Position numbers and translations under genes: made by a program. Under the pieces are notes generated by a model that made no database searches, had not been told where the DNA came from, and saw nothing but the letters and a program-made list of their open reading frames with translations. DNA of 52,488 nucleotides, taken from a virus. Lineage: Duplodnaviria > Heunggongvirae > Uroviricota > Caudoviricetes. Shown in pieces: positions 5,424-40,903 of the stretch (its first letter is position 1; every line of letters begins with the position of its first letter). The stretch lies in the IMG/VR virus record IMGVR_UViG_2537561830_000002. One strand, 5' to 3'.

Positions 5424-6029
5424 TTTGCTGCTCCTCATCATATCGACCCTGTAAGGTCGGTTAGTTTCTCCACAAAACAGAGAAGAACACCTGCGGTGGC
5501 AGCCGCCCGGATGGATTGGGTTATGAGCCCGTCGTCCGGTGATGCTCTTCTCTGTTTTGTAAAAAGAGCGGTACCAGCCGGAAGCAAGGGTACAAACTGG
5601 TACCGCCAAAGCAGTGGCTGTTGTGGTGGGGTTGTCACTCAGGCGTATGGTCAACCTGACAATCCGGTGTCCTCAACGGGGAAAGAGTAACCCCGCCATA
5701 CTTACCGCCGCGCCATTTCGCGGATTACCACAACGCTGAGAGCACTTAGCCAGTTACGGCACCACACTTTGTCGCGGCTCCATAAATGCCCTCATCGTTG
5801 CACCCTGGTCTCTTCCCAGGCGTCAAACCGAATCGCCACGCTGGTTAGGCGTCTTATCAGCATCATCATTGACTTGCACATTCCGGCTACCTGGTTTGTT
5901 TGCCCGAGCAAGGAGTGGATTGTCCCCTTTAACGTCCCCAGACCGCTAACGACGCATGTGCCATACGCCGTGTTACAACCAAATTTTGTTAGTACCTTGT
6001 TTGTTTGTCTGGAAAGAAAGATAAAATGA

Positions 6030-6080
6030 AGTTGCGCATTATGCAAGTGTTTTTGTTGCGAGATATGCAATTTAAAGGGT
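6030..6080 (-). promoter_or_regulatory. candidate oL/pL operator-promoter region
   Basis: Imperfect palindromes of the TTGCG...GCAA type, similar to those between the repressor and cro genes; position left of the repressor terminator. Confidence 0.35.
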
Positions 6081-6105
6081 AATGAAAAGCCACCTTTGGG
6101 TGGCT
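6081..6105 (-). terminator. rho-independent terminator after the repressor gene
   Basis: GC stem agccacc/ggtggct with a 3-nt loop, followed on the minus strand by TTTTCATT. Confidence 0.5.
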
Positions 6106-6125
6106 AATTGATGAGGAGGTAAGGG

Positions 6126-6818: not shown

Positions 6819-6915
6819 GCGTTTATTACATTTCTTTAATGCGCGTTAAGCAAATCAACTTGCGCAAAATATTTGCGTGAAATAATATGCTCATCACGCA
6901 ATATGTGGAGGTCAT
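6819..6915. promoter_or_regulatory. oR / pR-pRM divergent operator-promoter region
   Basis: Intergenic region between divergent repressor and cro genes containing near-palindrome CGCAAAATATTTGCG and a related repeat. Confidence 0.5.
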
Positions 6916-7176
6916 ATGCAATCACCATTACGGAATGTGCGTAAGGCGCACGGATTTACTTTGCAGCATGTTGCTGCTGGCGTTCAGGTCAATCCAGCGA
7001 CGCTGAGTCGTATTGAAAGACTGGAACAAATTCCATCTATCGATCTTGCAGAACGTCTGGCCAATTTTTTTAAGGGTGAAATCAGCGAAATGCAGATTCT
7101 TTATCCGGCACGTTTTCAATCTAGCCAAAACCAGAATGGGTTTAAACCACAGGAACAGGAGGTAAGCCGTGGGTAA
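6916..7176 (+). CDS. Cro-like HTH regulator (86 aa)
   Basis: HTH GFTLQHVAAGVQVNPATLSRIER; divergent from repressor; GGAGG RBS. Confidence 0.8.
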   Translation: MQSPLRNVRKAHGFTLQHVAAGVQVNPATLSRIERLEQIPSIDLAERLANFFKGEISEMQILYPARFQSSQNQNGFKPQEQEVSRG

Positions 7177-7726
7177 TCATCACTGGAAAGTGGAAAAACA
7201 GCCTGAGTGGTACGTGAAAGCTGTCAGAAAAACTATCGCGGCGTTGCCGGGGGGTTACGCTGAAGCTGCTGAGTGGCTGGATGTAACAGAGAACGCATTA
7301 TTTAACCGCCTTCGTGCCGATGGCGATCAGATTTTCCCGCTGGGATGGGCAATGATTTTACAACGTGCTGGTGGCACTCACTTCATTGCCGACGCTGTGG
7401 CGCAGTCTGCAAATGGCGTCTTTGTGTCTCTTCCTGACGTCGAGGATGTGGACAATGCCGATATTAACCAGCGTTTACTGGAAGTCATTGAACAGATCGG
7501 CAGTTATTCAAAACAGATTCGTTCGGCAATCGAAGACGGTGTAGTGGAACCGCATGAGAAGACAGCAATTAACGACGAGCTGTACCTCTCAATTTCGAAG
7601 CTGCAGGAGCATGCAGCACTTGTCTACAAAATTTTTTGCGTTTCAGAAAGTAATGACGCCCGCGAGTGTGCAGCTCCGGGCGTCGTGGCGTCGATTGCTT
7701 CTGGTTGTGGAGAAACTAACGCATGA
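7169..7726 (+). CDS. CII-like phage regulatory protein (CP76-type), GTG start
   Basis: Position immediately after cro; AGGAGG RBS 7 nt upstream of the GTG; family assignment is from recollection only. Confidence 0.65.
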
Positions 7727-8081
7727 ACAGTTTAACAACACACTACCGTCGCTCGCAACTGATTGCGCTTCCTGTACCGGGTGGAAAAGCGAAGGTAGAG
7801 TATTGCTATGCAGTAAATGTACCAGGTGACAGGGAAATTGTAACCCACAGCTTTGCAGAGTGGGCTGTGGGTGATTTCAACCGGCAGAAGGAGACAGTCC
7901 TTTGCGACAAGTTAACCGCTGGTTCAAAGATCACTACGGAGTGCCCGTCAGAGTCATTCGTTGGGAGCCGGAAACACAACGGGTTATCTACCTCCGTGAA
8001 GGCTATGAGCATGAGTGCTTCAGCCCGCTCGAACAGTTTCGTCGTAAATTCAGGGAAATAGAGGTCGGTCATGAGCACTAA
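7723..8081 (+). CDS. small gene(s) in two frames: possible frameshifted gene or two small ORFs
   Basis: ATGA-coupled ORF from 7723 turns Ser-rich after about 7900, while the -1 frame (TTG 7902 to TAA 8081, preceded by GAAGGAGA) encodes a well-composed peptide [23 protein letters not shown]... Confidence 0.3.
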
Positions 8082-9012
8082 ATTAACCGGCTATGTATGG
8101 GATGGTTGCGCTGCGTCAGGCATGAAATTATCCAGCGTGGCAATTATGGCCCGCCTGGCTGATTTCAGTAATGACGAAGGTGTGTGCTGGCCATCAATTG
8201 AAACCATTGCCCGTCAGATTGGCGCGGGGATGAGTACCGTCAGAACGGCTATCGCACGGCTGGAAGCAGAAGGCTGGTTAACGCGTAAGGCGCGTCGCCA
8301 GGGTAACCGCAATGCGTCGAATGTTTATCAGCTTAACGTTGCGAAGCTTCAGGCAGCGGCATTTTCTCAACTGTCAGATTCTGACCCGTCAAAATCTGAC
8401 GCATCAAAATCTGACCCGTCAAAATTTGATGCGTCGAAATCTGGCAAAAAAGCGGGTTTTCACCCGTCAGAATCTGGCGGGGATCCGTCAGTAAAATCAA
8501 AACATGATCCGTCAGATAAAAAAACTTCTCGTCCGGACGCTTCGCAACCGGACACGCAGACGGCTGAACAGGAGTTTTTAACTCGCCATCCTGATGCGGT
8601 TGTATTCAGCCCTAAAAAGCGCCAGTGGGGGACGCAGGATGATTTGACCTGCGCACAGTGGCTCTGGAAAAAAATCATCGCCCTGTACGAGCAGGCTGCC
8701 GAATGTGACGGCGAGGTGGTTCGTCCCAAAGAACCGAACTGGACAGCCTGGGCAAACGAAATTCGCCTGATGTGTGTGCAGGATGGTCGTACTCACAAAC
8801 AAATCTGCGAGATGTACAGCCGCGTCAGCCGCGATCCGTTCTGGTGCCGTAACGTGCTCAGCCCGTCGAAGCTGCGGGAAAAATGGGATGAGCTTTCCCT
8901 GCGCTTATCGCCGTCCGTAAGCACGTACACCGAAAAACGCGAAGACCCGTACTTCAAATCCAGTTACGACAACGTGGACTACAGCCAGATCCCGGCAGGA
9001 TTCAGGGGGTGA
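8071..9012 (+). CDS. replication initiation protein (lambda O-like) with internal iteron region
   Basis: N-terminal winged-helix region, central SDSDPSKSDASKSDPSKFDASKSG repeat encoded by iterons, C-terminal domain. Confidence 0.8.
   Translation: MSTKLTGYVWDGCAASGMKLSSVAIMARLADFSNDEGVCWPSIETIARQIGAGMSTVRTAIARLEAEGWLTRKARRQGNRNASNVYQLNVAKLQAAAFSQLSDSDPSKSDASKSDPSKFDASKSGKKAGFHPSESGGDPSVKSKHDPSDKKTSRPDASQPDTQTAEQEFLTRHPDAVVFSPKKRQWGTQDDLTCAQWLWKKIIALYEQAAECDGEVVRPKEPNWTAWANEIRLMCVQDGRTHKQICEMYSRVSRDPFWCRNVLSPSKLREKWDELSLRLSPSVSTYTEKREDPYFKSSYDNVDYSQIPAGFRG
8371..8525. repeat. iterons (candidate replication origin) within the O-like gene
   Basis: About 7 copies of a ~15-bp unit ccgtcaaaatctgac and variants at regular spacing. 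Confidence 0.6.
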
Positions 9013-9014
9013 TT

Positions 9015-9503
9015 ATGAGTCTTTTGAATGAAGTTCAGAAATTCATTGAAGCCCATCCGGGGTGTACTTCCGGAGACATTGCGGATGCTTTTGCTGGTTA
9101 CTCACGGCAGCGCGTTCTGCAGTCAGCAAGCAAGTTACGTCAGAGTGGGCGTGTGGCTCACCGTTGTGAAGGGGATACACGCAGACATTTCCCGCGCCTG
9201 ACTGAGAGAGCGCAGGATCCGGAACCACAACCAGTTCGTGAAACCAGACCTGTGCGCAATTTCTATGTCGGCACTAACGACCCGCGGGTGATTTTGTGCC
9301 TGACCCGCCAGGCGGAAGAACTGGAGTCCAGGGGCTTATACCGTCGTGCTGCAACGGTGTGGATGGCGGCATTCCGTGAAAGCCACTCCCAGCCAGAACG
9401 AAACAATTTTCTGGCGCGTCGTGAACGGTGTTTACGGAAAAGCAGTAAGCGGGCTGCATCAGGTGAAGAGTGGTATCTCTCAGGGAATTACGTGGGGGCT
9501 TAA
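9015..9503 (+). CDS. hypothetical DNA-binding/regulatory protein (163 aa)
   Basis: ATG just after the O-like stop; N-terminal winged-helix-like segment; arginine-rich C-terminus; family uncertain. Confidence 0.5.
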   Translation: MSLLNEVQKFIEAHPGCTSGDIADAFAGYSRQRVLQSASKLRQSGRVAHRCEGDTRRHFPRLTERAQDPEPQPVRETRPVRNFYVGTNDPRVILCLTRQAEELESRGLYRRAATVWMAAFRESHSQPERNNFLARRERCLRKSSKRAASGEEWYLSGNYVGA

Positions 9504-10156
9504 TGAGTAATAAATATTGCCAGGCGCTGGTGGAACTGCGGAACAAACCAGCCCATGAACTGAAGGAAGTGGGCGATCAGTGGCGCACGCCGGACAACAT
9601 TTTCTGGGGAATTAACACCCTGTTTGGCCCGTTTGTTCTGGATCTGTTCACTGACGGTGATAACGCCAAATGTGCTGCGTATTACACGGCGGAAGACAAC
9701 GCGCTGGCGCATGACTGGTCAGAACGCCTTGCGGAGCTTAAAGGTGCTGCCTTTGGTAATCCCCCATACAGCCGCGCCAGTCAGCATGAGGGGCAATACA
9801 TCACCGGCATGCGTTACATCATGAAGCATGCCAGTGCCATGCGTGATAAAGGCGGGCGCTATGTTTTCCTGATCAAAGCTGCCACCAGCGAAGTGTGGTG
9901 GCCGGAAGATGCAGATCATATTGCTTTTATTCGCGGGCGTATTGGTTTTGAACTGCCTGCCTGGTTTATCCCGAAGGATGAGAAGCAGGTGCCGACAGGC
10001 GCTTTCTTCGCTGGTGCTATTGCTGTTTTCGACAAGACCTGGAAGGGACCGGCAATCAGCTACATCGGGCGCGATGAACTTGAGGCATGTGGTGAGGCCT
10101 TTCTGGCGCAGGTTCGCCATCAGGCAGAAAAACTGGTCAGGGAGATGGCGGCATGA
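9503..10156 (+). CDS. orphan phage DNA N6-adenine methyltransferase
   Basis: FGNPPYS catalytic motif; TAATG overlap with the upstream gene; no partner endonuclease nearby. Confidence 0.85.
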   Translation: MSNKYCQALVELRNKPAHELKEVGDQWRTPDNIFWGINTLFGPFVLDLFTDGDNAKCAAYYTAEDNALAHDWSERLAELKGAAFGNPPYSRASQHEGQYITGMRYIMKHASAMRDKGGRYVFLIKAATSEVWWPEDADHIAFIRGRIGFELPAWFIPKDEKQVPTGAFFAGAIAVFDKTWKGPAISYIGRDELEACGEAFLAQVRHQAEKLVREMAA

Positions 10157-10479
10157 CGACGTTAACTCAATGCCAGCAGCAGGTGCTGGATATGCTGATT
10201 TCTTATCAGCAAGAACGTGGCTTCCCGCCAACCAATCAGGAGGTGGCAACCATGCTGGGATACCGTTCAGTGAATGCAGCGGTGGAGCATCTTCGCGCAC
10301 TGGAGAAAAAAGGCGTCATCACGATAAAGCGTGGCGTGGCCCGGGGGATAACGCTTCATACCGCGGTGAAGGACGACGACAGCGAGGCGGCCGGGATTAT
10401 CCGCGCACTGCTTGCTGGTGAGGAAAACGCCAGGCTGCGTGCAGCCCACTGGTTACATGAGAGGGGGCTGAAAGTATGA
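10153..10479 (+). CDS. LexA-like winged-helix DNA-binding protein (108 aa, no peptidase domain)
   Basis: CQQQVLDMLISYQQERGFPPTNQEVATMLGYRSVNAAVEHLRALEKKGVI resembles the LexA N-terminal domain; ATGA coupling. Confidence 0.65.
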   Translation: MTTLTQCQQQVLDMLISYQQERGFPPTNQEVATMLGYRSVNAAVEHLRALEKKGVITIKRGVARGITLHTAVKDDDSEAAGIIRALLAGEENARLRAAHWLHERGLKV

Positions 10480-10865
10480 AGCTGATTCTGCCTTTTCCAC
10501 CCAGCGTGAACACCTACTGGCGACACCCCAACAAAGGGGCATTTGCTGGTAAGAGCCTGATAAGCGCGGCGGGGCGAAAATTCCAGAGTGCGGCGTGCAC
10601 AGCAATAGTTGAGCAGTTACGTCGTCTGCCGAAACCAACGTCAGCACCTGCTTCAGTGGAGATCGTGTTGTTTCCTCCGGATAACCGGATCCGCGATCTG
10701 GACAACTATAACAAGGCGCTGTTTGACGCCCTGACCCACGCGGGTGTGTGGGAAGACGACAGCCAGGTGAAAAGAATGTTGGTGGAGTGGGGACCGGTTA
10801 TCCCGGAAGGGAAGGTCGAGATCACTATCAGTAAGTACGAGAAACCGGCGGGTGCAGCCGCCTGA
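10476..10865 (+). CDS. rusA: RusA Holliday-junction resolvase
   Basis: MKLILPFPPSVNTYWRH...DLDNYNKALFDALTHAGVWEDDSQV is the characteristic RusA sequence. Confidence 0.85.
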   Translation: MKLILPFPPSVNTYWRHPNKGAFAGKSLISAAGRKFQSAACTAIVEQLRRLPKPTSAPASVEIVLFPPDNRIRDLDNYNKALFDALTHAGVWEDDSQVKRMLVEWGPVIPEGKVEITISKYEKPAGAAA

Positions 10866-10884
10866 TCAAGAGGAGAAACGAAGT

Positions 10885-11682
10885 ATGAATAATCTGATGG
10901 TCATTGATGGTATTGAAGTTCGTCGTGATGCTTATGGGCGTTACAGCCTGAACGATCTGCACAGGGCTGCCGGTTCTCTGGATAAGCATAAGCCTGCATT
11001 CTGGCTCCGCAATGAGCAAACTGAACGTTTAATAAGCGAGTTGCAGATTTGCAACTCGGTCAATATAGAGCCAGTTAACGTTATTCGTGGCGGAAATAAC
11101 CAGGGGACGTATGTCTGCAAAGAACTGGTGTATGCCTATGCAATGTGGATCAGCCCGTCATTCCATCTGAAGGTGATCCGTACTTTCGATATGGTAACCA
11201 GCACACCGGAAAAAATATCCGGGCAGGCTGCTGACAAGATGCAGGCTGGCGTGATCCTGCTGGACTTTATGCGCAGGGAATTAAACCTGTCTAACTCATC
11301 AGTGCTTGGAGCCTGTCAGAAGCTTCAGGAGGCTGTTGGCTTACCGAATCTGGCACCGCGCTATGCCATTGATGCTCCTGCTGACGCGCCTGATGGCTCA
11401 AGTCGCCCCACGCTGTCGCTGAGTGCACTGCTGAAACAGTATGGTATCCGCCTTACGGCTAATCAGGCATATCACCAGATGGTGAAGCTGGGGATCGTTG
11501 AACAACGCGAACGATACAGCCGTACCGCAATTAACAACATTAAAAAATTCTGGTCGCTGACGGCGAAAGGCTGCATGTTCGGCAAGAACATCACCAGTCC
11601 CGCAAATCCGCGCGAGACGCAGCCGCATTTCTTCGAATCCCGATTCCCTGAGCTGTTAAAGCTGCTCGATACCGTTCATTGA
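10885..11682 (+). CDS. KilA-N domain protein
   Basis: MNNLMVIDGIEVRRDAYGRYSLNDLHRAAG... N-terminal KilA-N-like region; AGGAGA RBS. Confidence 0.7.
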   Translation: MNNLMVIDGIEVRRDAYGRYSLNDLHRAAGSLDKHKPAFWLRNEQTERLISELQICNSVNIEPVNVIRGGNNQGTYVCKELVYAYAMWISPSFHLKVIRTFDMVTSTPEKISGQAADKMQAGVILLDFMRRELNLSNSSVLGACQKLQEAVGLPNLAPRYAIDAPADAPDGSSRPTLSLSALLKQYGIRLTANQAYHQMVKLGIVEQRERYSRTAINNIKKFWSLTAKGCMFGKNITSPANPRETQPHFFESRFPELLKLLDTVH

Positions 11683-11683
11683 G

Positions 11684-12679
11684 GTGACCGTGAGAGCACT
11701 ACTGACCCCTGAAATAGCCCCGCGTATGGGGATCGTATTGTTCAGGCCAGGTTCAGAGCTGATGCCCCTGTTTATGCAGGGGCGTGTTCTGCTGGAGCCT
11801 GAGCCGGAGCGTTATTCATCTTTCGCCAGTGGTGCCGTTCCTGCGGCATCACAACCGCTGGCGGATGATCCTGCCGTTCTGGCCGTGTTCCGTAATGAGG
11901 CAGTGATTCGTCGTGCTGGTGGGGTGGAATGTCTTGAAAGCTGGTTACTTCGTGAAAAAGGCTGCCAGTGGCCTCATTCCGACTGGCACAGCGAGAACAT
12001 GACCACAATGCGACACGCGCCGGGCGCAATCCGTCTGTGCTGGCACTGCGATAACCAGCTTCGCGATCAGTTCACGGAACGGCTGGAATCAATGGCAACG
12101 GATAACTGTGCCCGCTGGGTGTTGTCTGTTGTGCGTCGGGATCTCGGTTTTGATGATAGTCACGTTGTGACAATGCCGGAACTGTGCTGGTGGCTGATTC
12201 GTAATGATCTGGCAGATGCCTTACCGGAAAGTGCAGCCCGTAAGGCACTGAGATTACCGAAGCCTGTTGTGCCGTCTGTCACCCGGGAAAGTGATCTTGT
12301 GCCTTCGGTTCCTGCCACCAGCATCATCCAGGATAAGGCGAAAAAGGTGCTGGCGCTGAAAGTGGATCCGGAGTCGCCGGAGTCTTTTATGTTACGCCCA
12401 AAACGCCGCCGCTGGGTTAATGAAAAGTACACGCGCTGGGTTAAGACACAGCCGTGTGCATGTTGTGGAAAGCCTGCTGATGATCCCCACCACCTGATAG
12501 GCCATGGTCAGGGTGGAATGGGTACAAAAGCGCATGACCTCTTTGTGTTGCCTTTGTGCAGAAAGCATCACGACGAGCTGCATGCGGATACCGTGGCATT
12601 TGAAGAGAAGTATGGTTCCCAGTTGGAGCTGATATTTCGTTTTATCGATCGTGCGCTGGCAATTGGCGTGCTGGCCTGA
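11684..12679 (+). CDS. DUF968 family phage protein (YdfU-like)
   Basis: C-terminal Cys/His cluster CACCGKPADDPHHL...CRKHHDELH; GTG start uncertain (ATG at 11726 is an alternative). Confidence 0.7.
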   Translation: MTVRALLTPEIAPRMGIVLFRPGSELMPLFMQGRVLLEPEPERYSSFASGAVPAASQPLADDPAVLAVFRNEAVIRRAGGVECLESWLLREKGCQWPHSDWHSENMTTMRHAPGAIRLCWHCDNQLRDQFTERLESMATDNCARWVLSVVRRDLGFDDSHVVTMPELCWWLIRNDLADALPESAARKALRLPKPVVPSVTRESDLVPSVPATSIIQDKAKKVLALKVDPESPESFMLRPKRRRWVNEKYTRWVKTQPCACCGKPADDPHHLIGHGQGGMGTKAHDLFVLPLCRKHHDELHADTVAFEEKYGSQLELIFRFIDRALAIGVLA

Positions 12680-12697
12680 TTTTTTCGGAGAAAGTTG

Positions 12698-13084
12698 ATG
12701 CGTAATATACAGATGATCCTTGAACGTTGGGGGGCATGGGCAGCGAGTGATAGCTCAGGAGTTGACTATTCGTCTATAGCTGCTGGGTTTAAGGGGCTTC
12801 TTCCATATACCAGAAAGACACGTCTAGCTTGTTCAGATAGTGATGCATTAATTATTGAAGGTAGCCTTGCTCTTCTTAAGAAGAGAAAACCGTACGAACA
12901 TTCTTTGATTGTGGCTCATTACCTGTATGGCATCTCGAAAAGAAAGATCGCAAAGGCACGTAATAAAGACGAAAAATTGATACGTATCGAGATACAGGTT
13001 GCTGAAGGTTTTATCGATGGCTGCCTAAGTATGCTGGATGTGAAACTTGAAATGGATGACTACTCTGAGTCTCCTGTAGCATGA
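12698..13084 (+). CDS. late-gene antiterminator Q (P22 gene 23 type)
   Basis: MRNIQMILERWGAWAA...SIAAGFKGLL matches the P22 gp23 family from memory; GGAGAAAG RBS. Confidence 0.8.
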   Translation: MRNIQMILERWGAWAASDSSGVDYSSIAAGFKGLLPYTRKTRLACSDSDALIIEGSLALLKKRKPYEHSLIVAHYLYGISKRKIAKARNKDEKLIRIEIQVAEGFIDGCLSMLDVKLEMDDYSESPVA

Positions 13085-13695
13085 AATAATGAAACGACCA
13101 TATGTCTTACATAATATGGTTGATTTGTAGCTGGATGCAATGTTGTACTCATGAATCGCAAGGGATTATCCTCGTCGGTTGTAATTTTTGCATCAGCTAC
13201 TTCCTGCTGAAGATGCTTTCGCCAGTCATCAAGTCTCTCGCCAGATTTCTTAATTTTACAGTAAATGATAATGCCACCATGGTTGTCACGCGCAGTGCCT
13301 GTGCCATATCGCTCGTTGAGCTGGTTCCATCCACCTAAGATGTACGCAGGACCTTTCCATAATTTAGCTTCGCCAATCCATGCAAATCGGCCGAGCTGAT
13401 GTTTAACTAATATATCTATATGCCCTCCATGCTGAGTGTCATGTTCAGCGTCATAATTACGGCCTTTCAAAAAAGCAATAATAACTGATGTGAGCTCATC
13501 TTCACCCCACTGCTGTGTTTGATACATATGTTTTTGGGTTTCCAAAACATACATCGCGTCATCAAGGTCAACGTAAAGTTGCTTCACGAAATCGTCGTGA
13601 CTTGCTGCAAATTTTCGCTTAAGAAAACCAGACAATTCAGGGTCAAATTGACTTAAGGTGTCTAATTGGGCAAGGTTGAAATTACATTCACTCAT
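13060..13695 (-). CDS. cassette gene C: hypothetical protein with PD-(D/E)xK-like nuclease motif (211 aa)
   Basis: Motif E84..D94 (GGHIDILV)..E109-A-K111 (WIGEAKLW); strong GGAGG RBS; AT-rich; 3' end overlaps the Q 3' end convergently by 25 nt. Confidence 0.7.
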   Translation of the reverse strand: MSECNFNLAQLDTLSQFDPELSGFLKRKFAASHDDFVKQLYVDLDDAMYVLETQKHMYQTQQWGEDELTSVIIAFLKGRNYDAEHDTQHGGHIDILVKHQLGRFAWIGEAKLWKGPAYILGGWNQLNERYGTGTARDNHGGIIIYCKIKKSGERLDDWRKHLQQEVADAKITTDEDNPLRFMSTTLHPATNQPYYVRHMVVSLFHATGDSE

Positions 13696-14110
13696 GTAAT
13701 TCCTCCAAAGCCTCAGTAGGAGTGAAGTATGGGAACAAATAATGATTATAATTATCGACTAATTGACCACTGTAAGGATGATAAAACTTACCTGTATGAA
13801 GCGCATGAGACACGTCATCATCATCGACGGGAATAGGATCACTATCGTCAGACTCGATATACTGGAAATGCATATCTAGCAAGTGCATTCTGTTGCTCGA
13901 AAGATAGTCAGTTACTTTGATCAGTAAAACTTTGGCATCGTTATTTTGCACATCAAGCTTAGTACCATTAACCAAACTTACATATGTTATGTGTTTCAGT
14001 GACTTAGCTTCTTTGCTGGTTAAAAAATCAACCACAACACGACATAAATCTCCAACCGGCCCATGTAGGTCGTGGTTGATTTTCGAGTATATGTCGTGTT
14101 TAGTTAACAT
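13688..14110 (-). CDS. cassette gene B: hypothetical protein (140 aa)
   Basis: ATG at 14108-14110 (the track ORF starts on TTG at 14116); stop overlaps gene C start by 8 nt; acidic stretch DSDPIPVDDDD; no motif recognised. Confidence 0.65.
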   Translation of the reverse strand: MLTKHDIYSKINHDLHGPVGDLCRVVVDFLTSKEAKSLKHITYVSLVNGTKLDVQNNDAKVLLIKVTDYLSSNRMHLLDMHFQYIESDDSDPIPVDDDDVSHALHTGKFYHPYSGQLVDNYNHYLFPYFTPTEALEELHE

Positions 14111-14120
14111 AATCAACTCT

Positions 14121-15218
14121 TTATGCAGCCTCGTCAGTGGCTCGCTTTCTCTGTATGCTTGATAGTGACTCTAACATCTTGTTGATTACAAACAAAATAT
14201 GCTCAATTGAGGAGCAACGATCTATGATTGCATCATAAAGGTGACTGTTCGGTTTATCAATCATAGCCCGTTTACCTGGCAGTATTAATTCTACAGGGAA
14301 AACTTGAGAAGCTGAATCAGTCAGATCCCAAATTTTACCGAGTTTGTATTTCGTTAGTATGGGACTTGCCTCTTCGCCCCCATGATGGTAGCTGTCTGAG
14401 CGCAAGCAGCTTTCACCCGGACGGAGTTTTAATGAGCTGGTGTTTCCATCTGATGTAAGAAATGACATCTGCGAGATTCTACCATCTGTTTGCTCGTACA
14501 TTTCTTGTACTAATCCAAAGAGGTCAATGGGCGCAGGTAAAGTCAAACCAGTAGTAGTTCTAATAAACTGATCAAGCAAAAATTGCTGTCGTTCCGACTC
14601 TGAACGAGGCATCACAGATAAATCAACAGTGAGCGCAAGTAAATGCAACTCGGGTAGAATCATTATTGTATTAAAGCACTGTGTAACTTCACGTGTTTTA
14701 CATTTGATTTCACCACCATTGGAGCGAAGAGCTAGCCCAGCATCGCTTAAATGGGTCGCGTCGAGTTCAATAGTTTCTGTGTAGTATGCTTTCGACGTAA
14801 GAATCGTTGTTTCTAAAGAAACTTTGTTTACGACAGAAAATGTAGTTTCTAAAAAATGAAGATCTGTATCAGCTGCAAGCAACACATCTTTAGGCAAAGG
14901 ATATGGATAGCTTTCGCAAAAAACGGATTCGTCTCTTTCTAGGGCATTTATATTCTCCCGTAGAGTTTGCACTTCTTCCGGTTCTAACTTATACAGCTTA
15001 ACTAAACGGGTCCCACTCAATAGTAAATTTTGCCATACTTCACCTATATGAGTACTTACAGCTTCCTGATCTACATCTTCTGTTGCTTGGAGCCTCGCGA
15101 TAAATGGGTCAAGGCCAACTGATGTGACACCAAGTGGTTCCCCCACAATTTTTTTTGTGAGCTTCCATCCAACACGTTCGGTGATATCTCTTAAAAGGTT
15201 GATCGTTTGCTCATTCAT
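14121..15218 (-). CDS. cassette gene A: hypothetical protein (365 aa)
   Basis: ATG at 15216-15218 (the track ORF starts on TTG at 15260); 10-nt gap to gene B; no Walker or other motif recognised; AT-rich. Confidence 0.7.
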   Translation of the reverse strand: MNEQTINLLRDITERVGWKLTKKIVGEPLGVTSVGLDPFIARLQATEDVDQEAVSTHIGEVWQNLLLSGTRLVKLYKLEPEEVQTLRENINALERDESVFCESYPYPLPKDVLLAADTDLHFLETTFSVVNKVSLETTILTSKAYYTETIELDATHLSDAGLALRSNGGEIKCKTREVTQCFNTIMILPELHLLALTVDLSVMPRSESERQQFLLDQFIRTTTGLTLPAPIDLFGLVQEMYEQTDGRISQMSFLTSDGNTSSLKLRPGESCLRSDSYHHGGEEASPILTKYKLGKIWDLTDSASQVFPVELILPGKRAMIDKPNSHLYDAIIDRCSSIEHILFVINKMLESLSSIQRKRATDEAA

Positions 15219-15299
15219 AAGAAACCCTTTTTTGTATTTTTTTGTACTTTTTGAAGGCAATTTAGATAGTCCTTAACATACTAAATTAACGAACATATT

Positions 15300-15340
15300 T
15301 CATTAGCACGGTCCGCAAAAAGTGATGTATCATGTTAAGA
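15300..15340 (+). promoter_or_regulatory. candidate late promoter pR' / Q utilisation region
   Basis: -35-like TTAGCA and -10-like TATCAT upstream of a short-transcript terminator, as in lambdoid late regions; weak. Confidence 0.3.
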
Positions 15341-15363
15341 GTGGTTACTTCGCCACACAACTT

Positions 15364-15387
15364 AAACCCGCCGTCGAGCGGGTTTTG
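15364..15387 (+). terminator. rho-independent terminator (tR'-like) upstream of the holin gene
   Basis: aaacccgc-cgtcga-gcgggttttg: GC stem plus T-run on the plus strand. Confidence 0.55.
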
Positions 15388-15536
15388 TCATTTCTAGGCC
15401 TTGGTATTCGTTGGGCTTGGTCTATCTGGTACTTATCCATTGGCTCGACTTCTTTTACGTTTCCGCTTCTGATTTGCGGTACATGATGTTCCCTCAATTT
15501 GCACCTCCTGTATTGCGAGGTGAGAGATAACTACAA

Positions 15537-15863
15537 ATGCCTCATAACCCAAATACCTGGCTGGACTTGGTCCAGAGCTGGTGGCGTGGAGACACACCGC
15601 TGGGTGCAGTGATTATGTCGATCGTTATGGCTGGTTTGCGCATCGCCTATTTTGGCGGTGGTGGTGGCTGGAAGCGAAAAACGCTCGAGATTTTGCTATG
15701 TGGCGCTCTGACGCTGACCTTTGCATCCGCTCTTGAGTATGTCGGATGGCCTAAATCGCTTTCTGTTGCCATTGGTGGTGGCGTGGGGCTGATCGGTGTC
15801 GATGCTATTCGTGGGGCTGCAATGCGAGTAATCGGTAACAAATTTGGTAGCTCGAAGGAGTAA
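15537..15863 (+). CDS. holin (108 aa)
   Basis: Three hydrophobic segments with Gly-rich turns; directly upstream of the endolysin gene. Confidence 0.8.
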   Translation: MPHNPNTWLDLVQSWWRGDTPLGAVIMSIVMAGLRIAYFGGGGGWKRKTLEILLCGALTLTFASALEYVGWPKSLSVAIGGGVGLIGVDAIRGAAMRVIGNKFGSSKE

Positions 15864-15866
15864 TTT

Positions 15867-16343
15867 ATGCAGGCACTAAATTCCCAGCGTAAAGCTTTCC
15901 TGGATATGGTGGCATGGTCAGAAGGAACGGATAACGGGCGACAACCGACACGTAACCACGGTTATGATGTTATTGTTGGTGGTGAACTGTTCACTGATTA
16001 CTCCGATCACCCTCGCAAACGTGTCACGCTAAACCCCAAACTCAAATCAACAGCCGCCGGACGTTATCAGCTTCTTTCACGCTGGTGGGATGCTTACCGT
16101 AAGCAGCTTGCTCTGAAAGACTTCTCTCCGAAAAGCCAGGATGCTGTGGCATTGCAGCAGATTAAGGAGCGTGGCGCTTTACCGATGATTGATCGCGGTG
16201 ATATTCGTCAGGCAATTGACCGTTGCAGCAATATCTGGGCTTCACTGCCGGGCGCTGGTTATGGTCAGTTCGAGCATAAGGCTGACAGCCTGATTGCAAA
16301 ATTCAAAGAAGCAGGCGGAACGGTCAGAGAGATTGAGGTATGA
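15867..16343 (+). CDS. R: endolysin, lambda R-type lytic transglycosylase
   Basis: [47 protein letters not shown] is nearly identical to lambda R. Confidence 0.95.
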
Positions 16344-16801
16344 GCAGAGTAACCGCGATTATTTCCGCTCTGGTTATCTGCATCATCGTTTGCTTGTCAT
16401 GGGCTGTTAATCATTACCGCGATAACGCCATTACCTACAAAGCCCAGCGCGACAAAAATGCCAGAGAACTGAAGCTGGCGAACTCGACAATTACTGACAT
16501 GCAGATGCGTCAGCGTGATGTTGCTGCGCTCGATGCAAAATACACGAAGAAGTTAGCTGATGCGAAAGCTGAAAATGATGCTCTGCGTGATGATGTTGCC
16601 GCTGGTCGTCGTCGGTTGCACATCAAAGCAGTCTGTCAGTCAGTGCGTGAAGCCACCACCGCCTCCGGCGTGGATAATGCAGCCTCCCCCCGACTGGCAG
16701 ACACCGCTGAACGGGATTATTTCACCCTCAGAGAGAGGCTGATCACTATGCAAAAACAACTGGAAGGAACCCAGAAGTATATTAATGAGCAGTGCAGATA
16801 G
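16340..16801 (+). CDS. Rz: i-spanin Rz
   Basis: N-terminal transmembrane anchor, coiled-coil periplasmic domain; ATGA coupling to the endolysin gene. Confidence 0.9.
16560..16742 (+). CDS. Rz1: o-spanin Rz1 (lipoprotein embedded in Rz, +1 frame)
   Basis: Signal peptide with lipobox LVVVGC and Pro-rich mature part, entirely inside Rz. Confidence 0.85.
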
Positions 16802-16832
16802 CGCTGCCCATATCGATGGGCAACTCATGCAA

Positions 16833-17126
16833 TTATTGTGAGCAATACACCCGCGCTTCCAGCGGAGTATAAATGCCTAAAGTAATAAAACCGAGCAATC
16901 CATTTACGAATGTTTGCTGGGTTTCTGTTTTAACCACATTTTCTGCGCCGCCACAAATTTTGGCTGCATCAACAGTTTTCTCCTGTCCAATTCCCGAAAC
17001 GAAGAAATGATGGGTGATGGTTTCCTTTGGTGTTACTGCTGTCGGTTTGTTTCCAACAGTAAACGTCTGTTGAGCACATCCTGTAATAAGCATTGCCAGA
17101 GCGGCAGAAAACAACATTTTTTTCAT
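16833..17126 (-). CDS. bor: Bor lipoprotein (lysogenic conversion)
   Basis: MKKMLFSAALAMLITGC... near-identical to lambda Bor; lipobox LITGC; AGGA RBS. Confidence 0.9.
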   Translation of the reverse strand: MKKMLFSAALAMLITGCAQQTFTVGNKPTAVTPKETITHHFFVSGIGQEKTVDAAKICGGAENVVKTETQQTFVNGLLGFITLGIYTPLEARVYCSQ

Positions 17127-17509
17127 CTTATTATCCTGCATTGTTAAAAACGGCAGAATCCTATGTGACAACAATTAAACGATAGTTAAATGGATTGATG
17201 AAAATTAAAACTATATAGGTGTACGGTCAGACTATTGGAGGTAGTCAGGATTTGAATGTCAGTCTGTTGTCGGCATTCTGGCAATGCAATTTGGATAAAG
17301 CGGGGATTAAAAAGATAGAGGCGAGCCGGTCAGGTAGAAATGAATCAGGCTCAAAGTGAAGCGGAAAAGGTCTGTGGTACAAGCTGATGCAGCCATAATT
17401 ACAGCCTGATGATTTGTGGAATGAAACATGTTGAACCTCCTTAATTGATGTTATTCGAGTGATGAAGGCATTCTGTCCTTCTATAGTGTCCAGTAAATCA
17501 AACAGGAAA

Positions 17510-17531
17510 CTTGTCCAACGTGTTGGACAAG
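17510..17531. promoter_or_regulatory. perfect 10-bp palindrome, candidate terminase recognition / cos-proximal site
   Basis: cttgtccaac gt gttggacaag lies between the lysis module and the HNH-terminase genes. Confidence 0.3.
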
Positions 17532-17651
17532 CCTCTCCATTAGTGAGTTGTATTGATCACAACTCTACAAAGAATTCATTACTGGGTAGATGAAAATAGT
17601 TTCACGATGAATGGAGGAGGCTATGTCGGTGGCTTCTTCATTGGAGTACAT

Positions 17652-35020: not shown

Positions 35021-35595
35021 CAAACGATGATTACATCCGTCTGTTGTCGGCACTGCTGCCGCCCGGTCCGGCGTGGTCAGCCAGCGATCCGGCGATTGCC
35101 GGTGCGGCACCGTCATTAACCCGCGTTCATCAGCGTGCGGATGCCCTGATGCGGGAGCTGGATCCGCGCACCACCACCGAACTGATAAATCGCTGGGAGC
35201 GTCTGTGCGGCCTGCCGGATGAATGTATTCCCGCAGGAACACAGACCCTTCGCCAGCGTCAGCAACGACTGGATGCGAAGGTTAACCTGGCGGGCGGCAT
35301 CAACGAGGATTTTTATCTTGCACAGCTTGCTGCCCTGGGCAGACCAGATGCCACCATCACGCGATACGACAAAAGCACGTTCACCTGCTCATCGGCCTGT
35401 ACTGACGCTGTGAACGCGCCTGAATGGCGGTATTACTGGCAGGTCAACATGCCAGCCGCCACCAACACCACCTGGATGGCATGTGGCGATCCCTGTGATT
35501 CCGCACTGCGTATCTGGGGCGACACCGTTGTCGAATGTGTGCTTAACAAACTCTGCCCGTCGCATACCTACGTAATTTTTAAATATCCGGAGTAA
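35011..35595 (+). CDS. tail protein (Mu gp48 / YmfQ-like, DUF2313)
   Basis: 194 aa; directly before the tail fibre gene. Confidence 0.75.
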
Positions 35596-35598
35596 TCC

Positions 35599-36582
35599 AT
35601 GCATCGTATAGACACGAAAACCGCGCAGAAGGATAAGTTCGGCGCGGGTAAGAACGGTTTTACCCGTGGTAACCCCCAGACCGGCACGCCTGCCACCGAT
35701 CTGGATGATGACTACTTTGACATGTTGCAGGAGGAGCTTTGCAGCGTTGTGGAGGCGTCCGGTGCCAGCCTGGATAAGGGGCGGCACGACCAGCTACTTA
35801 CCGCGCTTCGCGCGCTGCTGTTAAGCCGCAAGAATCCGTTTGGCGATATCAAATCGGATGGCACGGTGAAAACGGCTCTCGAAAACCTTGGTTTGGGAGA
35901 AGCCAGATTCTCTGGTCGTTTGTTAAACACGAATATTTTTAAAAGCTCTGGAAAATATATCCCAACACCAGGGACAAAAAAGATAAGGGTCATTGCCTCT
36001 GGTGGCGGTGGCGGCGGCGGTGGGGTTCCTGAAACAACAGAAAATCAGCAGGCAACAGCCGGAGCTGGATTGAGCGGCGCATTTATTGAAGCATTTTTCG
36101 AGGTTGATAATGATTTCGAAGTCAACGTTATTATCGGTGCTGCAGGTAAAGGTGGGGGAGCCGGAAGAAATTCAGGTAGTGAAGGTGGCACAACTTATTT
36201 CGGTTCCATGATAACTGCACCTGGTGGTACAGGCGGTGGCGCGGGGGGAGCATCTGCAAACACATCATATATTCAGGGTATTTCATGGGGTGCCAGTCCG
36301 ACATCGTCCGGTACTGTACTAAGAGCATTTCGCTGTAGTGCAAAAACACCAGGAGCAATGGTTATCTCTGTTAAAGCTGTAGCAGGTGGTACCGGGGGGG
36401 ATACACCATTAGGTTCAGGCGGTATAGGTGGTGCAAGTTCTTCATCATTCAGCGGACGTGGTGGTGGTAAAGCTGAGGGCTTTGGTGCTGGCGGAGGCGG
36501 AGCCTGCGCACCTGCTGGAAGTGAGGCTCAATCGGGAGGTGACGGTGCCCCGGGAATAGTTATTGTTGAGGAGTATGCCTGA
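35599..36582 (+). CDS. tail fibre protein: conserved N-terminus fused to a Gly-rich variable C-terminus inside an invertible segment
   Basis: N-terminus [40 protein letters not shown]; composition shifts after codons LGLGEAR at the inverted repeat. Confidence 0.8.
35888..35908. repeat. left inverted repeat / recombination crossover site of the tail-fibre segment
   Basis: ttggtttgggagaagccagat is a perfect reverse complement of 37324-37344. Confidence 0.75.
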
Positions 36583-36848
36583 TGAGTAATTTTGCTCTGA
36601 TTGAACATGGCGTGGTGAAAAATATTATTATCTGGGATGGAGAGGGTGATTTATTCTCTAATTGCGAAATTATAAATATTGATCATATAGATGCAGGCGT
36701 CGGTTGGTTCTATTCTGACGGAGAGTTTATAGCACCACCGGAACCGGAAATGACTGAATATGATGTTGGTAATATCGACGCGGTGATGGAAGCAGATACC
36801 AGCACCGCGCCGGGGGTTATCTGGCCAGTTCCACCTGAGATGGTTTAA
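36582..36848 (+). CDS. putative tail fibre assembly/chaperone protein (U-like, 88 aa)
   Basis: ATGA-coupled to the tail fibre gene, inside the invertible segment. Confidence 0.5.
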   Translation: MSNFALIEHGVVKNIIIWDGEGDLFSNCEIINIDHIDAGVGWFYSDGEFIAPPEPEMTEYDVGNIDAVMEADTSTAPGVIWPVPPEMV

Positions 36849-37104
36849 TCTCAATCAGAATGGGTTCGCCCTTCTTGTTAACAGATATTTCCATTCCTTC
36901 AGGGATTTCAGATGCAGTAAAAAACCAGTTATCTTCTGGTAATTCCACAGCCCCGGTCACGTCATGAAGACCGGGGATTACTTCAGTCAAAGTAACAGGA
37001 TTAAACAGGCGCACAATAAACTCTCCAGGAAAAAGCACTTGTTGATGGTCTTCCGTCGTACATCTGGCAGCGGACATAAAAACCTGTATTACTGACCTGG
37101 TCAT
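36817..37104 (-). CDS. alternative U'-like ORF or frameshifted part of the alternative fibre end
   Basis: Minus-strand ORF converging on U and overlapping the alternative fibre ORF by about 100 nt in another frame. Confidence 0.35.
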   Translation of the reverse strand: MTRSVIQVFMSAARCTTEDHQQVLFPGEFIVRLFNPVTLTEVIPGLHDVTGAVELPEDNWFFTASEIPEGMEISVNKKGEPILIEIKPSQVELAR

Positions 37105-37344
37105 CCACGATCATTGAAACGTGAACGTTATTAGGTGTGGCTTCGTAATCTGTTCTTATTCTTTCCGCTATGCTGATAAAACGTGAAAGTTTAGGTAGTG
37201 CAATTGGATAAACGACTTTAGCCAGCCCATTATCATTGGAACCACCAGTTCCAAATACTTCTATTGCACCATCTGACCAGCGTATCCATGCACCATTGAC
37301 ATTAGCTCCTCGCTGAATGACATATCTGGCTTCTCCCAAACCAA
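37001..37344 (-). CDS. alternative tail-fibre C-terminal segment (Sv'-like), no own start codon
   Basis: Minus-strand ORF beginning at the right inverted repeat with the same GLGEAR junction as the plus-strand fibre. Confidence 0.6.
37324..37344. repeat. right inverted repeat / recombination crossover site
   Basis: atctggcttctcccaaaccaa; perfect 21-bp inverted partner of 35888-35908. Confidence 0.75.
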
Positions 37345-37410
37345 CGTTTATGAAAATGCAGAAATAACGAGCAAATGGCATCATTCCTGCTTTTGTCAGG
37401 GAGATCTACC

Positions 37411-37965
37411 ATGCTTATTGGCTATGTACGTGTGTCAACAAATGACCAGAACACAGATCTACAACGTAATGCGCTGAACTGTGCAGGATGCGAGCTGATT
37501 TTTGAAGACAAGATAAGCGGTACAAAGTCCGACAGACCAGGACTGAAAAAGCTGCTCAGGACATTATCGGCAGGTGACACGCTGGTGGTCTGGAAACTGG
37601 ACCGACTGGGGCGCAGTATGCGGCATCTTGTCGTGCTGGTGGAGGAGTTGCGCGAACGAGGCATCAACTTTCGTAGTCTGACGGATTCAATTGATACCAG
37701 TACCCCAATGGGGCGCTTTTTCTTTCATGTGATGGGTGCCCTGGCTGAAATGGAGCGTGAACTGATTGTTGAACGAACAAAAGCTGGACTGGAAGCAGCT
37801 CGCGCACAGGGACGAATTGGTGGACGTCGCCCCAAACTTACACCAGAACAATGGGAGCAGGCCGGACGATTAATTGCATCAGGCGTTCCTCGCCAGAAGG
37901 TGGCGATCATCTATGATGTTGGTATATCGACACTGTATAAGAAGTTTCCGGTCGGAGATAAATGA
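37411..37965 (+). CDS. serine DNA invertase (Pin/Gin/Hin family)
   Basis: MLIGYVRVSTNDQNTDLQRNAL...LVVWKLDRLGRS...MGRFFFHVMGALAEMERELIVERT; catalytic Ser in GYVRVST. Confidence 0.9.
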   Translation: MLIGYVRVSTNDQNTDLQRNALNCAGCELIFEDKISGTKSDRPGLKKLLRTLSAGDTLVVWKLDRLGRSMRHLVVLVEELRERGINFRSLTDSIDTSTPMGRFFFHVMGALAEMERELIVERTKAGLEAARAQGRIGGRRPKLTPEQWEQAGRLIASGVPRQKVAIIYDVGISTLYKKFPVGDK

Positions 37966-38025
37966 AACCGTAGCACGTCGTATGCAAGAAGATCGTGCTG
38001 CGGTTTATGCTTATCACTTAAAGAC

Positions 38026-38895
<870 letters not shown>

Positions 38896-38964: not shown

Positions 38965-39030
38965 GTTTGATGATTGGACCGGTCTCGAAAACCGGAGTAG
39001 GGGCAACTCTACCGGGGGGTCAAATCCCCC
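38965..39030 (+). pseudogene. 3' fragment (about 66 nt) of a tRNA-Ser(CGA)-like gene; att-site scar
   Basis: ggaccggtctcgaaaaccggagtaggggcaactctaccggggggtcaaatccccctctctccgcca matches the serU 3' half from memory with one T-loop substitution; no 5' half present. Confidence 0.7.
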
Positions 39031-40856: not shown

Positions 40857-40903
40857 ATTCGTAATGCGAAGGTCGTAGGTTCGACTCCTATTATCGGCAC
40901 CAT
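40857..40903. repeat. attR core: 47-bp direct repeat of the thrW 3' end
   Basis: Exact copy of 1399-1445. Confidence 0.85.

Follow-up and report, generated by a model that had tools for sequence, protein, structure and literature searches.

Genes and features of the fibre locus

The window, that is, the whole 52,488-nt stretch of DNA analysed here, carries a 39.5-kb SfV/e14-like prophage at tRNA-Thr (thrW). Its bounds are 47-bp att repeats, copies of the tRNA-Thr(CGT) 3' end (1399 to 1445 and 40857 to 40903), next to proA, and the prophage looks complete and is probably inducible. Within it lie a tail-fibre gene, a pair of inverted sites and an invertase gene, arranged as follows.

35599 to 36582, plus strand: tail-fibre gene in the window's orientation (327 aa), constant N-terminus plus glycine-rich tip, intact ORF
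35599 to 35889, plus strand: constant fibre part (Sc), outside the segment, common to both in-silico fibre forms
35876 to 35901: pixL, 26-bp crossover site, CTCTCGAAAACC TT GGTTTGGGAGAA, core dinucleotide at 35888 to 35889
35888 to 35908: left arm of the 21-nt repeat (core, inner half-site and 7 nt)
35890 to 37342: invertible segment between the core dinucleotides, ~1.46 kb; homology to K-12 e14 does not extend past the pix sites, and the cargo inside is unrelated
35890 to 36582, plus strand: variable arm 1, glycine-rich tip (Pfam Gly_rich_2), now joined to the constant part
36582 to 36848, plus strand: 88-aa ORF downstream of arm 1 (phrog_14370), putative fibre-assembly chaperone
36817 to 37014, minus strand: 65-aa ORF downstream of arm 2, GTG start with a GGAGAG Shine-Dalgarno sequence, called by PGAP in ECE228, putative chaperone
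37001 to 37342, minus strand: variable arm 2, alternative tip, silent in the window's orientation, fused in frame in silico
37324 to 37344: right arm of the 21-nt repeat, a perfect inverted copy of the left
37331 to 37356: pixR, 26-bp crossover site, TTCTCCCAAACC AA CGTTTATGAAAA, core at 37343 to 37344
37343 to 37384, minus strand: 14-aa leader with ATG, outside the segment, which turns whichever arm faces pin into a predicted ORF (127 aa now)
37411 to 37965, plus strand: pin, serine DNA invertase (184 aa), Pfam Resolvase and HTH_7
37429 to 37500, plus strand: putative recombinational enhancer (Fis sites) within the 5' end of pin, proposed by homology only

The annotation of this locus is misleading. 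In the near-identical ECE228, PGAP calls only 35599 to 35901, as an "stfP pseudogene", a label that makes a truncated gene of an intact fibre and leaves the glycine-rich tip unannotated.

Crossover sites and invertase

The arms of the perfect 21-nt repeat are separated by 1,415 nt, and both their coordinates and the spacing of about 1.4 kb given by an earlier, sequence-only reading were confirmed. With one mismatch the repeat extends to 26 nt (35883 to 35908 and 37324 to 37349). As that reading also placed it, the left arm lies inside the fibre gene at LGLGEAR, which we locate at codons 97 to 103 of the 327-aa ORF (35887 to 35907). The right arm had been credited with the same junction peptide, but the peptide there is VGLGEAR. 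It had also been described as the beginning of a minus-strand ORF; such an ORF exists (37001 to 37384), but it starts 40 nt outside the segment, with the 14-aa leader MMPFARYFCIFINV.

The repeats had been described as flanking the segment. The repeat is real, but the recombination sites are 26-bp pseudo-palindromes centred on its outer ends, with half of each site outside the repeat coordinates. These are two inverted sites, each with imperfect 12-bp half-sites and the same 2-bp core, and an alignment with gix and cix, as extracted from the records of Mu and P1, shows the same 12+2+12 layout. Read as its reverse complement, pixR is TTTTCATAAACG TT GGTTTGGGAGAA, and the inner half-site GGTTTGGGAGAA is identical in pixL and pixR. 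Both sites are identical to the pix sites of K-12 e14. A third crossover site, as in multiple inversion of the Min or shufflon kind, was looked for with AAACCNNGGTTT at up to one mismatch; the search returned only pixL, pixR and an unrelated match at 24748, which is no more than chance. A half-site-like repeat at 38978 to 38993, considered as a further site, proved to be part of a tRNA-Ser fragment.

The neighbouring gene had been recognized as a Pin/Gin-type serine invertase, and its product is indeed 95.7% identical in amino acids to K-12 PinE and 75.8% identical to Gin. Its likely start is the ATG at 37411, preceded by GGGAG 7 nt upstream, rather than the longest-ORF start at 37375. Pfam domains for Resolvase (PF00239, E 1.6e-51) and HTH_7 (PF02796, E 4.2e-13) were detected; residues 1 to 181 align to the Gin structures 3UJ3 and 4M6F (E 1e-95), S9 falling at the position of the nucleophile, and residues 139 to 182 are matched by structures of the Hin DNA-binding domain. 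The protein has the build of a small serine recombinase, namely, an N-terminal resolvase catalytic domain, a nucleophile at Ser9/10 and a C-terminal HTH. Experiments have shown PinE and the e14 sites to be active: overproduced PinE gave 49% inversion, and pinE mutants are locked; in wild-type K-12, the e14 segment lies mostly in one orientation (PMC12529663).

Nucleotides 19 to 90 of pin correspond to nucleotides 19 to 90 of cin, annotated in P1 (NC_005856) as "enhancer of Cin-mediated C-segment inversion". The identity is 55/72 to cin and 70/72 to K-12 pinE, figures that by themselves are no proof of enhancer function, since the region also encodes a conserved peptide. Two 15-mers resembling the Fis core (G-N13-C), both weak motif matches, are found at pin nucleotides 22 to 36 and 71 to 85. 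The putative enhancer begins 85 nt from the pixR core (a spacing of about 85 to 95 nt); in the Hin system, the spacing between hixL and the enhancer is roughly 100 bp (PMC3798978). A consensus scan of 35400 to 38200 for promoters and terminators gave no signal above chance.

The two fibre arms and related loci

The constant part, which presumably attaches to the baseplate, shares 96.3% nucleotide identity with K-12 e14 ymfQ-stfP as far as pixL. When the segment was inverted in silico, the reading frame was preserved, and the 327-aa glycine-rich fibre became a 210-aa fibre carrying the arm 2 tip; 103 aa are common to both forms because the repeat contributes 6 codons. The first 100 aa of the fibre match tail-fibre PHROGs, and phrog_863 spans all 327 aa (E 1.9e-66). 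A database protein of the same length (P0122, 57 member sequences) has a tip part 99% identical to that in the window. Within arm 1, residues 121 to 324 match Gly_rich_2 (PF21722) at 35.9 bits, above the gathering cut-off of 24.3, whereas arm 2 reaches only 17 bits (E 0.0087) against the gp53-like C-terminal domain (PF21882), under the cut-off of 24.9. No NCBIfam match was obtained for the tips or the small ORFs.

Searching solved structures with the sequences of the two tips gave no meaningful match, and predicted folds were compared instead. The AF2 model of arm 1 (pLDDT 90.5) found its best matches in the cyanophage Pam3 fibre (7YPX, E 1.2e-7) and the tail-tip chains of mycobacteriophage Bxb1 (9D93). 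For the arm 2 model (37004 to 37342, minus strand; pLDDT 77.6), the best matches were the C-terminal domains of R2 and R1 pyocin fibres (6CT8, 6CL6 and 6CXB). Each tip is thus predicted to take a fold known from virion or pyocin fibres, and arm 2 would be a tip resembling the foot of an R-pyocin fibre.

The two small ORFs are putative fibre-assembly chaperones, a role suggested only by their position. In the 88-aa ORF, the final 22 to 34 aa look like the C-terminal tail that is conserved in TfaE/TfaP, and in Enterobacter kobei a distant glycine-rich fibre is followed by a Caudo_TAP gene. Neither small ORF has any Pfam or NCBIfam match, and hence none to the tail fibre assembly family (Caudo_TAP; Mu U, P2 G and TfaE type). 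The 65-aa ORF matches phrog_5400 (E 2.3e-22) and, at E 0.0088, phrog_188. Beyond the segment, the leader MMPFARYFCIFINV is conserved in K-12 stfE and in L003 and corresponds to the start of the "StfE2" described in PMC12529663.

Copies of this cassette elsewhere were found in both orientations. P2-like prophages have a copy of the stretch from 35883 to 37347, at 99.59% identity, in both orientations: between UC4224 and UC4315, a mutant derived from it, the cassette (99.6% identical) is flipped, and the flanks are 100% identical. Together with the in-silico flip, this natural flip supports the proposal that inversion swaps the fibre C-terminus. The fused arm 2 form is annotated in the P2-like prophages of UC4315 and ECE228, and L003 and L009 differ in the orientation of a sister cassette in e14-type context. 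A census of 5426 complete E. coli genomes found arm 2 adjoining the invertase in 70 and the glycine-rich arm in 17. In e14-type context, the cassette studied here is found besides the window only in ECE228 and ECE218, and all three share the window's orientation.

The closest known system is the P segment of the cryptic K-12 prophage e14 (stfP-tfaP-tfaE-stfE-pinE), and the likeness to the Mu G, P1 C and e14 P segments that had been suggested is supported by pix sites identical to those of e14. With e14 the locus also shares a 95.7% identical invertase, a constant fibre N-terminus and ymfQ at 96% nucleotide identity, flanks that match K-12 at 96.3% and 92.6%, and the gene order (constant part, pixL, arm and small ORF, converging small ORF and arm, pixR, leader, pin); in both systems, the two small ORFs overlap at their 3' ends. 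The cargo, however, is unrelated. Its length is 1.46 kb, compared with 1797 bp in K-12, and it comprises the glycine-rich and pyocin-foot-like tips with the 88- and 65-aa ORFs, in place of the StfP and StfE tips with TfaP and TfaE. The only match to K-12 within 35903 to 37329 is a 53-nt piece from the 3' end of the 88-aa ORF, and the arms show no protein similarity to the K-12 arms. The perfect repeat is 21 nt instead of 16 nt, pin is followed by PD-T4-3 instead of mcrA, and the prophage is a full-length one of 39.5 kb at thrW, whereas K-12 carries a 15-kb remnant at icd.

As in Mu (G/Gin) and P1 (C/Cin), Sc lies outside the segment, which contains Sv/U and Sv'/U' facing opposite ways; the invertase gene is found immediately beyond it, its 5' end containing an enhancer (here putative), and the sites have a 2-bp core, which is TT in pix but TC in gix. 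The segment is half as long as G (about 3 kb) and one third as long as C (4.2 kb); the fibre is short (327 or 210 aa), and neither the tips nor their partner ORFs are related to S and U. The P2-like E. coli prophages (UC4224/UC4315 and the second prophage of ECE228) carry the same cassette with near-identical inner half-sites, but their constant part is a 350-aa shaft of the P2 H type, their outer half-sites differ, and their invertase is only 82.5% identical (protein and nucleotide). Hin, which drives flagellar phase variation in Salmonella, belongs to the same recombinase family, with a Fis- and enhancer-dependent mechanism and a similar distance between site and enhancer, but Hin flips a promoter rather than coding ends.

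The inversion model and its alternatives

Two readings would deny the locus a working pair of fibres. One is that the inverted repeat arose by chance and has no recombination function, for which only its shortness speaks. Among exact inverted repeats of the window with arms 50 to 3000 nt apart, none is longer than these 21 nt; in 100 mononucleotide shuffles, the longest ran to 12 to 17 nt, and the analytic expectation for repeats of at least 21 nt is 3.6e-5. A coincidental repeat had been named by the sequence-only reading as something that would count against it; these figures, together with the identity of the sites to known pix sites and the adjoining invertase gene, refute the chance reading. 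The other, also raised there, is that arm 2 is frameshifted or truncated, leaving a working fibre in one orientation only. Arm 2 is indeed short (107 aa beyond the repeat), the longest possible ORF downstream of it shares 104 nt with it in a different frame, and the 65-aa ORF covers only positions 1 to 66 of the 145-position phrog_5400 profile. From the GTG at 37014, however, the start annotated by PGAP in ECE228 and preceded by GGAGAG, the overlap with the arm 2 stop shrinks to 14 nt, an ordinary coupling overlap; the longer overlap applies only to the longest ORF. Homologues of arm 2, down to 60% identity in other genera, all share the C-terminus ...FSWRVYCAPV, and arm 2 reaches position 529 of 534 in phrog_2557. 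Its predicted fold is a complete pyocin-foot-like domain, and in UC4315 it is annotated within an intact 463-aa fused fibre. The 81 homologues of the small ORF (43 to 90 aa, identity down to 62%) are mostly 65 aa and none is near 145 aa, which led us to reject the idea of a truncated Tfa. Arm 2 and its conserved partner (57 to 90 aa) have family-typical lengths; a frameshift of the alternative fibre is not supported, and a defective arm seems highly improbable.

A fossil switch is another possibility, with pin silent or weak, no meaningful rate of flipping and a fibre effectively fixed with its glycine-rich tip. The single orientation in all three genomes with the cassette in e14-type context would fit this, as would the failure of any promoter-like site for pin to stand out in the consensus scan and the largely single orientation of the segment in wild-type K-12 (PMC12529663). 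We nevertheless consider it improbable, given that pin is intact, close to the active PinE and unchanged at Ser9, that the sites equal active ones, that neither the silent arm nor its partner ORF is damaged, both being 98 to 99% identical to copies expressed elsewhere, and that related cassettes occur in both orientations. It is unlikely, if somewhat easier to entertain, that inversion also or mainly alters a protein made by the lysogen, in which the ORF joining leader and arm could block adsorption of other phages. Here the model is e14, whose inversion yields a chimeric StfE2 reported to block T2 adsorption (PMC12529663). The leader with its ATG is kept in other loci, K-12 stfE among them; in databases, both arms occur most often as orphans (126 to 127 aa and 243 aa); and the defence gene PD-T4-3 comes after pin. 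However, the arms are unrelated to those of K-12, so that the T2/Gp38 mechanism is not simply transferable; AGGA abuts the first ATG and is separated from the second by 3 nt, which is poor spacing for a Shine-Dalgarno sequence; the scan revealed no promoter-like site; and orphan ORFs are the expected by-product of any in-frame inversion system. Such a function would be compatible with a role in host range.

We conclude that the locus is very probably a Pin-type tail-fibre inversion switch, of the Hin/Gin/Cin/Pin family, in an SfV/e14-like myovirus prophage at thrW. The kind of switch is known, being that of the E. coli e14 P segment; new is the pair of tips it carries. In the proposed mechanism, Pin dimers would bind the two 26-bp pix sites in their inverted relative orientation, host Fis would bind the enhancer in the 5' end of pin, and the synapsed sites would both be cut at their 2-bp cores (35888 to 35889 and 37343 to 37344). 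Because the start and first 97 codons of the fibre, and presumably its promoter, lie outside the segment, inversion would alter which C-terminal tip is joined in frame: the glycine-rich tip of the 327-aa fibre, followed by the 88-aa ORF, in the window's orientation, and the R-pyocin-foot-like tip of the 210-aa fibre, followed by the 65-aa ORF, after inversion. A lysogen population may then release virions with two adsorption specificities. By analogy with the family, this locus itself probably flips, its inversion should depend on Fis, and the two tips would recognize different receptors.

A broader, combined idea is that the pix cassette is portable between unrelated co-resident prophages and that the lysogen, by way of the conserved leader, expresses the "silent" tip as a free protein, which could mask receptors against other phages in the manner reported for StfE2 of K-12 e14; as a whole, we regard it as doubtful. 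Precisely between the sites, the e14/SfV-like copy and the P2-like copy share 99.6% identity, and the adjoining invertases only 82.5%. Cassettes might be exchanged through invertase-mediated recombination in trans. If the lysogen did express such a tip, the switch would toggle both the host range of the virion and the defence of the lysogen.

As a discovery, the locus carries little weight, and its use lies in annotation and phage biology. It shows that prophages which are full-length and probably inducible can also carry the e14 Pin system, there with different fibre tips. One and the same tip cassette is in circulation among phages of unrelated types, and the identity between copies stops precisely at the recombination sites; this bears on the prediction of prophage host range and on engineered fibre swaps.

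Inverted repeat, crossover sites and invertase

A perfect 21-nt inverted repeat, with arms at 35888-35908 and 37324-37344 lying 1415 nt apart, is the longest exact inverted repeat of the 52.5-kb window (arms 50-3000 nt apart), and it reaches 26 nt (35883-35908 / 37324-37349) when one mismatch is allowed. In 100 shuffles of the window the longest inverted repeat never exceeded 17 nt (range 12-17 nt); analytically, 3.6e-5 repeats of at least 21 nt would be expected. The repeat described by the sequence-only reading was therefore correctly placed and is beyond chance; its left arm indeed lies within the fibre gene at LGLGEAR, codons 97-103 of an intact ORF. A 26-bp pseudo-palindrome spans each outer repeat end; these are the actual recombination sites, pixL and pixR, of which the repeat makes up just the inner part.

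Features of the switch
35599-36582 (+), tail-fibre ORF, intact, 327 aa, left repeat arm inside
35876-35901, pixL crossover site, CTCTCGAAAACC TT GGTTTGGGAGAA
37331-37356, pixR crossover site, TTCTCCCAAACC AA CGTTTATGAAAA
37411-37965 (+), pin, serine invertase gene, 184 aa, Resolvase and HTH_7 domains

The inverted repeat quoted for the P segment of e14, the K-12 cryptic prophage, TTGGTTTGGGAGAAGG (PMC12529663), has the same core and inner half-site as the pix sites. Both sites flanking that segment, extracted from NC_000913, are identical to pixL and pixR, and their 12 + 2 + 12 layout is also that of Mu gix and P1 cix, as positioned by the Mu and P1 record annotation. In this family, a staggered cut at the core dinucleotide is established for Hin and Gin. 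By analogy, cuts would fall at 35888-89 and 37343-44, giving an invertible segment of about 1.46 kb.

The adjacent Pin/Gin-type serine invertase proposed earlier was recovered as an ORF ending at 37965, with GGGAG 7 nt upstream of its ATG. Its product has 95.7% amino-acid identity with K-12 PinE, against 82.5% with a P2-like prophage invertase and 75.8% with Gin. Gin crystal structures align with Pin residues 1-181 (E 1e-95) and put Ser9 in the place of the nucleophile; the Hin DNA-binding domain aligns with residues 139-182. If residue 1 of the 1HCR chain is Hin 139, Pin R153-L154 would correspond to Hin R154-L155, which is required in Fis-activated inversion (PMC3798978). The P1 record annotates the inversion enhancer at cin nt 19-90; the pin counterpart, 37429-37500, is identical to cin at 55/72 and to K-12 pinE at 70/72 positions, with G-N13-C 15-mers at pin nt 22-36 and 71-85. 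This putative enhancer starts 85 nt from the pixR core, near the spacing of roughly 100 bp in the Hin system (PMC3798978). Since these nucleotides also code for a conserved peptide, the likeness to the cin enhancer is homology and no proof of Fis binding; Fis dependence would be expected from the family.

Fibre tips and their small downstream ORFs

Inversion between the cores in silico kept the reading frame, yielding fibre forms that have 103 residues in common and then differ (327 versus 210 aa), in agreement with the proposed swap of the fibre C-terminus. Arm 1, the form expressed in the window, matches Pfam Gly_rich_2 (35.9 bits, cut-off 24.3) and has homologues in Enterobacterales, Pseudomonas and Burkholderia, as well as in Streptomyces and Bordetella phages. 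By fold, its predicted AF2 model (pLDDT 90.5) comes closest to 7YPX, the fibre of cyanophage Pam3 (E 1.2e-7), and to tail-tip chains of mycobacteriophage Bxb1. Arm 2 is silent in the window and inversion would yield the 210-aa fibre; the best matches of its model (pLDDT 77.6) were C-terminal fibre domains from the R2 and R1 pyocins (6CT8, E 2.8e-4, then 6CL6 and 6CXB). We infer the receptor specificities of the tips from family and position.

Downstream of a distant Gly-rich fibre (367 aa) in Enterobacter kobei (JAKMLI010000011.1, 4001-8316) lie first a Caudo_TAP assembly gene and then a gtrA/glycosyltransferase module for O-antigen modification. This stretch has no invertase, so the Gly-rich tip is also present in non-switching SfV-like prophages. 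Although the 327-aa fibre gene is intact, RefSeq/PGAP calls it 'stfP pseudogene, missing C-terminus' (35599-35901) in the e14/SfV-like prophage of E. coli ECE228 and gives the Gly-rich arm (35902-36581) no annotation. The label is an annotation artefact from modelling the fibre on K-12 StfP.

Each arm is followed by a small ORF. The 88-aa ORF after arm 1 resembles the conserved TfaE/TfaP C-terminal tail in its last 22-34 residues, and the 65-aa ORF after arm 2 has a GTG start and the Shine-Dalgarno sequence GGAGAG. Neither reaches a curated family in Pfam or NCBIfam, and their position suggests that they may be chaperones. Their 3' ends (+ and - strand, respectively) overlap by 32 nt at 36817-36848, as those of K-12 tfaP and tfaE do by 29 nt. 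The sole interior stretch similar to e14, 36774-36826 (53 nt), matches the tfaE 3' end in the inverted sense.

The sequence-only reading had noted an overlap of the downstream ORF with arm 2, which was confirmed and narrows to 14 nt from the GTG start at 37014, the start annotated by PGAP in the near-identical ECE228 prophage. The frameshift suggested partly on that ground is not supported, on several counts. Every arm 2 homologue, including 60%-identical ones in Enterobacter asburiae and Pseudocitrobacter, terminates at the same ...FSWRV(Y/I)(C/Y)AP(V/I) C-terminus, and the match runs to position 529/534 of phrog_2557. Moreover, the annotation of E. coli UC4315 and of the P2-like prophage of ECE228 treats the fused copy as an intact fibre of 463 aa. 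For the 65-aa ORF, 81 homologues were found in Escherichia, Enterobacter and Salmonella; most are also 65 aa long (range 43-90 aa), and the most distant have 62% identity. The overlap is ordinary translational coupling.

Orientation of the cassette and relation to e14

A P2-like prophage copy is 99.59% identical to the cassette at 35883-37347 (6 mismatches in 1465 nt). UC4224 and its derived mutant UC4315, which carry such a copy, have flanks that are 100% identical but differ in the orientation of a 1.46-kb segment, the inversion running precisely from repeat to repeat. A sister cassette in e14-type context, with the same Gly-rich arm and a different second arm, was found in both orientations (L003 versus L009). 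When 500-nt junction queries were run against 5426 complete E. coli genomes, arm 2 adjoined the invertase in 70 and the Gly-rich arm in 17; the cassette is common among sequenced E. coli genomes. For e14 itself, PMC12529663 gives measurements of inversion by PinE as well as by PinQ. The exact locus is on record in one orientation only (ECE228, ECE218). Inversion activity at the window locus is likely.

The principle of such switches is textbook, and Mu G/Gin and P1 C/Cin work the same way. From sequence comparison, the sites, invertase and constant part place this switch beside the Pin system of e14: identity to K-12 e14 is 96.3% in the left flank, as far as 35902, and 92.6% in the right flank, from 37330 onwards. 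However, similarity ends at the pix sites; the interior cargo is unrelated to that of e14, and the chromosomal location also differs. A literature search found no paper on this particular cargo.

Host prophage and possible cassette exchange

The stretch 17652-40622 is 99.8% identical and colinear with the ECE228 prophage, whose RefSeq annotation guided that of the window genes. The prophage (39.5 kb) adjoins proA, and its attL and attR are marked by a 47-bp perfect direct repeat (1399-1445 and 40857-40903), the 3' end of tRNA-Thr(CGT), a gene at 1369-1444. It carries integrase, regulators, lysis, terminase, portal, capsid, sheath, tube and tape measure genes and Mu-type baseplate genes gp45/46/47/48 (= YmfQ), followed by the fibre gene and invertase. 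It is a full-length relative of both the SfV group and e14, the K-12 remnant; where ymfQ meets the fibre gene, it has 96% identity to SfV, SfI, SfII and SfIV.

The early, left part (1-17651) is mosaic relative to ECE228, with 95-99% blocks, shifted coordinates and absent stretches; ECE228 carries IS1 in the counterpart region. Just downstream of pin, a GIY-YIG (LEM-3-like) gene (38026-38799, -) matches the anti-phage defence PD-T4-3 over its full length (PADLOC PDLC04031, E 2.4e-140). In K-12 e14 this position is held by mcrA, another defence gene, suggesting a defence-gene slot beside pin. The stretch 38976-39030, flanked by the PD-T4-3 gene and a regulator of AraC type, reads by eye as the 3' part of a gene like tRNA-Ser(CGA), with the anticodon stem, the T arm and the terminal CCA; neither ARAGORN nor Rfam called it. 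Within the thrW prophage it is probably the att remnant left by an element that integrated at serU.

Compared with the P2-like copies (L002, L004 and L010), the e14-like copy is 99.59% identical from one repeat end precisely to the other; beyond pixR, in the neighbouring invertase gene, identity is 82.5%, and left of pixL there is none. These breaks, which coincide with pixR and pixL, argue that e14-like and P2-like prophages have recently exchanged the cassette at the crossover sites. ECE228, the closest genome, has a prophage of each type, and the cassette is oriented oppositely in the two; the second copy (NZ_CP196312.1, 3254664-3260164) has its own invertase, 82.5% identical at the nucleotide level. 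Cross-reaction could occur in such a cell, whose two invertases meet four compatible sites.

The minus-strand ORF that had been described for arm 2 is present (37001-37384), but it does not start at the repeat: it begins 40 nt outside the segment, where a conserved 14-aa leader makes the silent arm an ORF. A leader does likewise for StfE2 in K-12 (PMC12529663), and for this reason the leader and silent-arm ORF may have a lysogen-side role.
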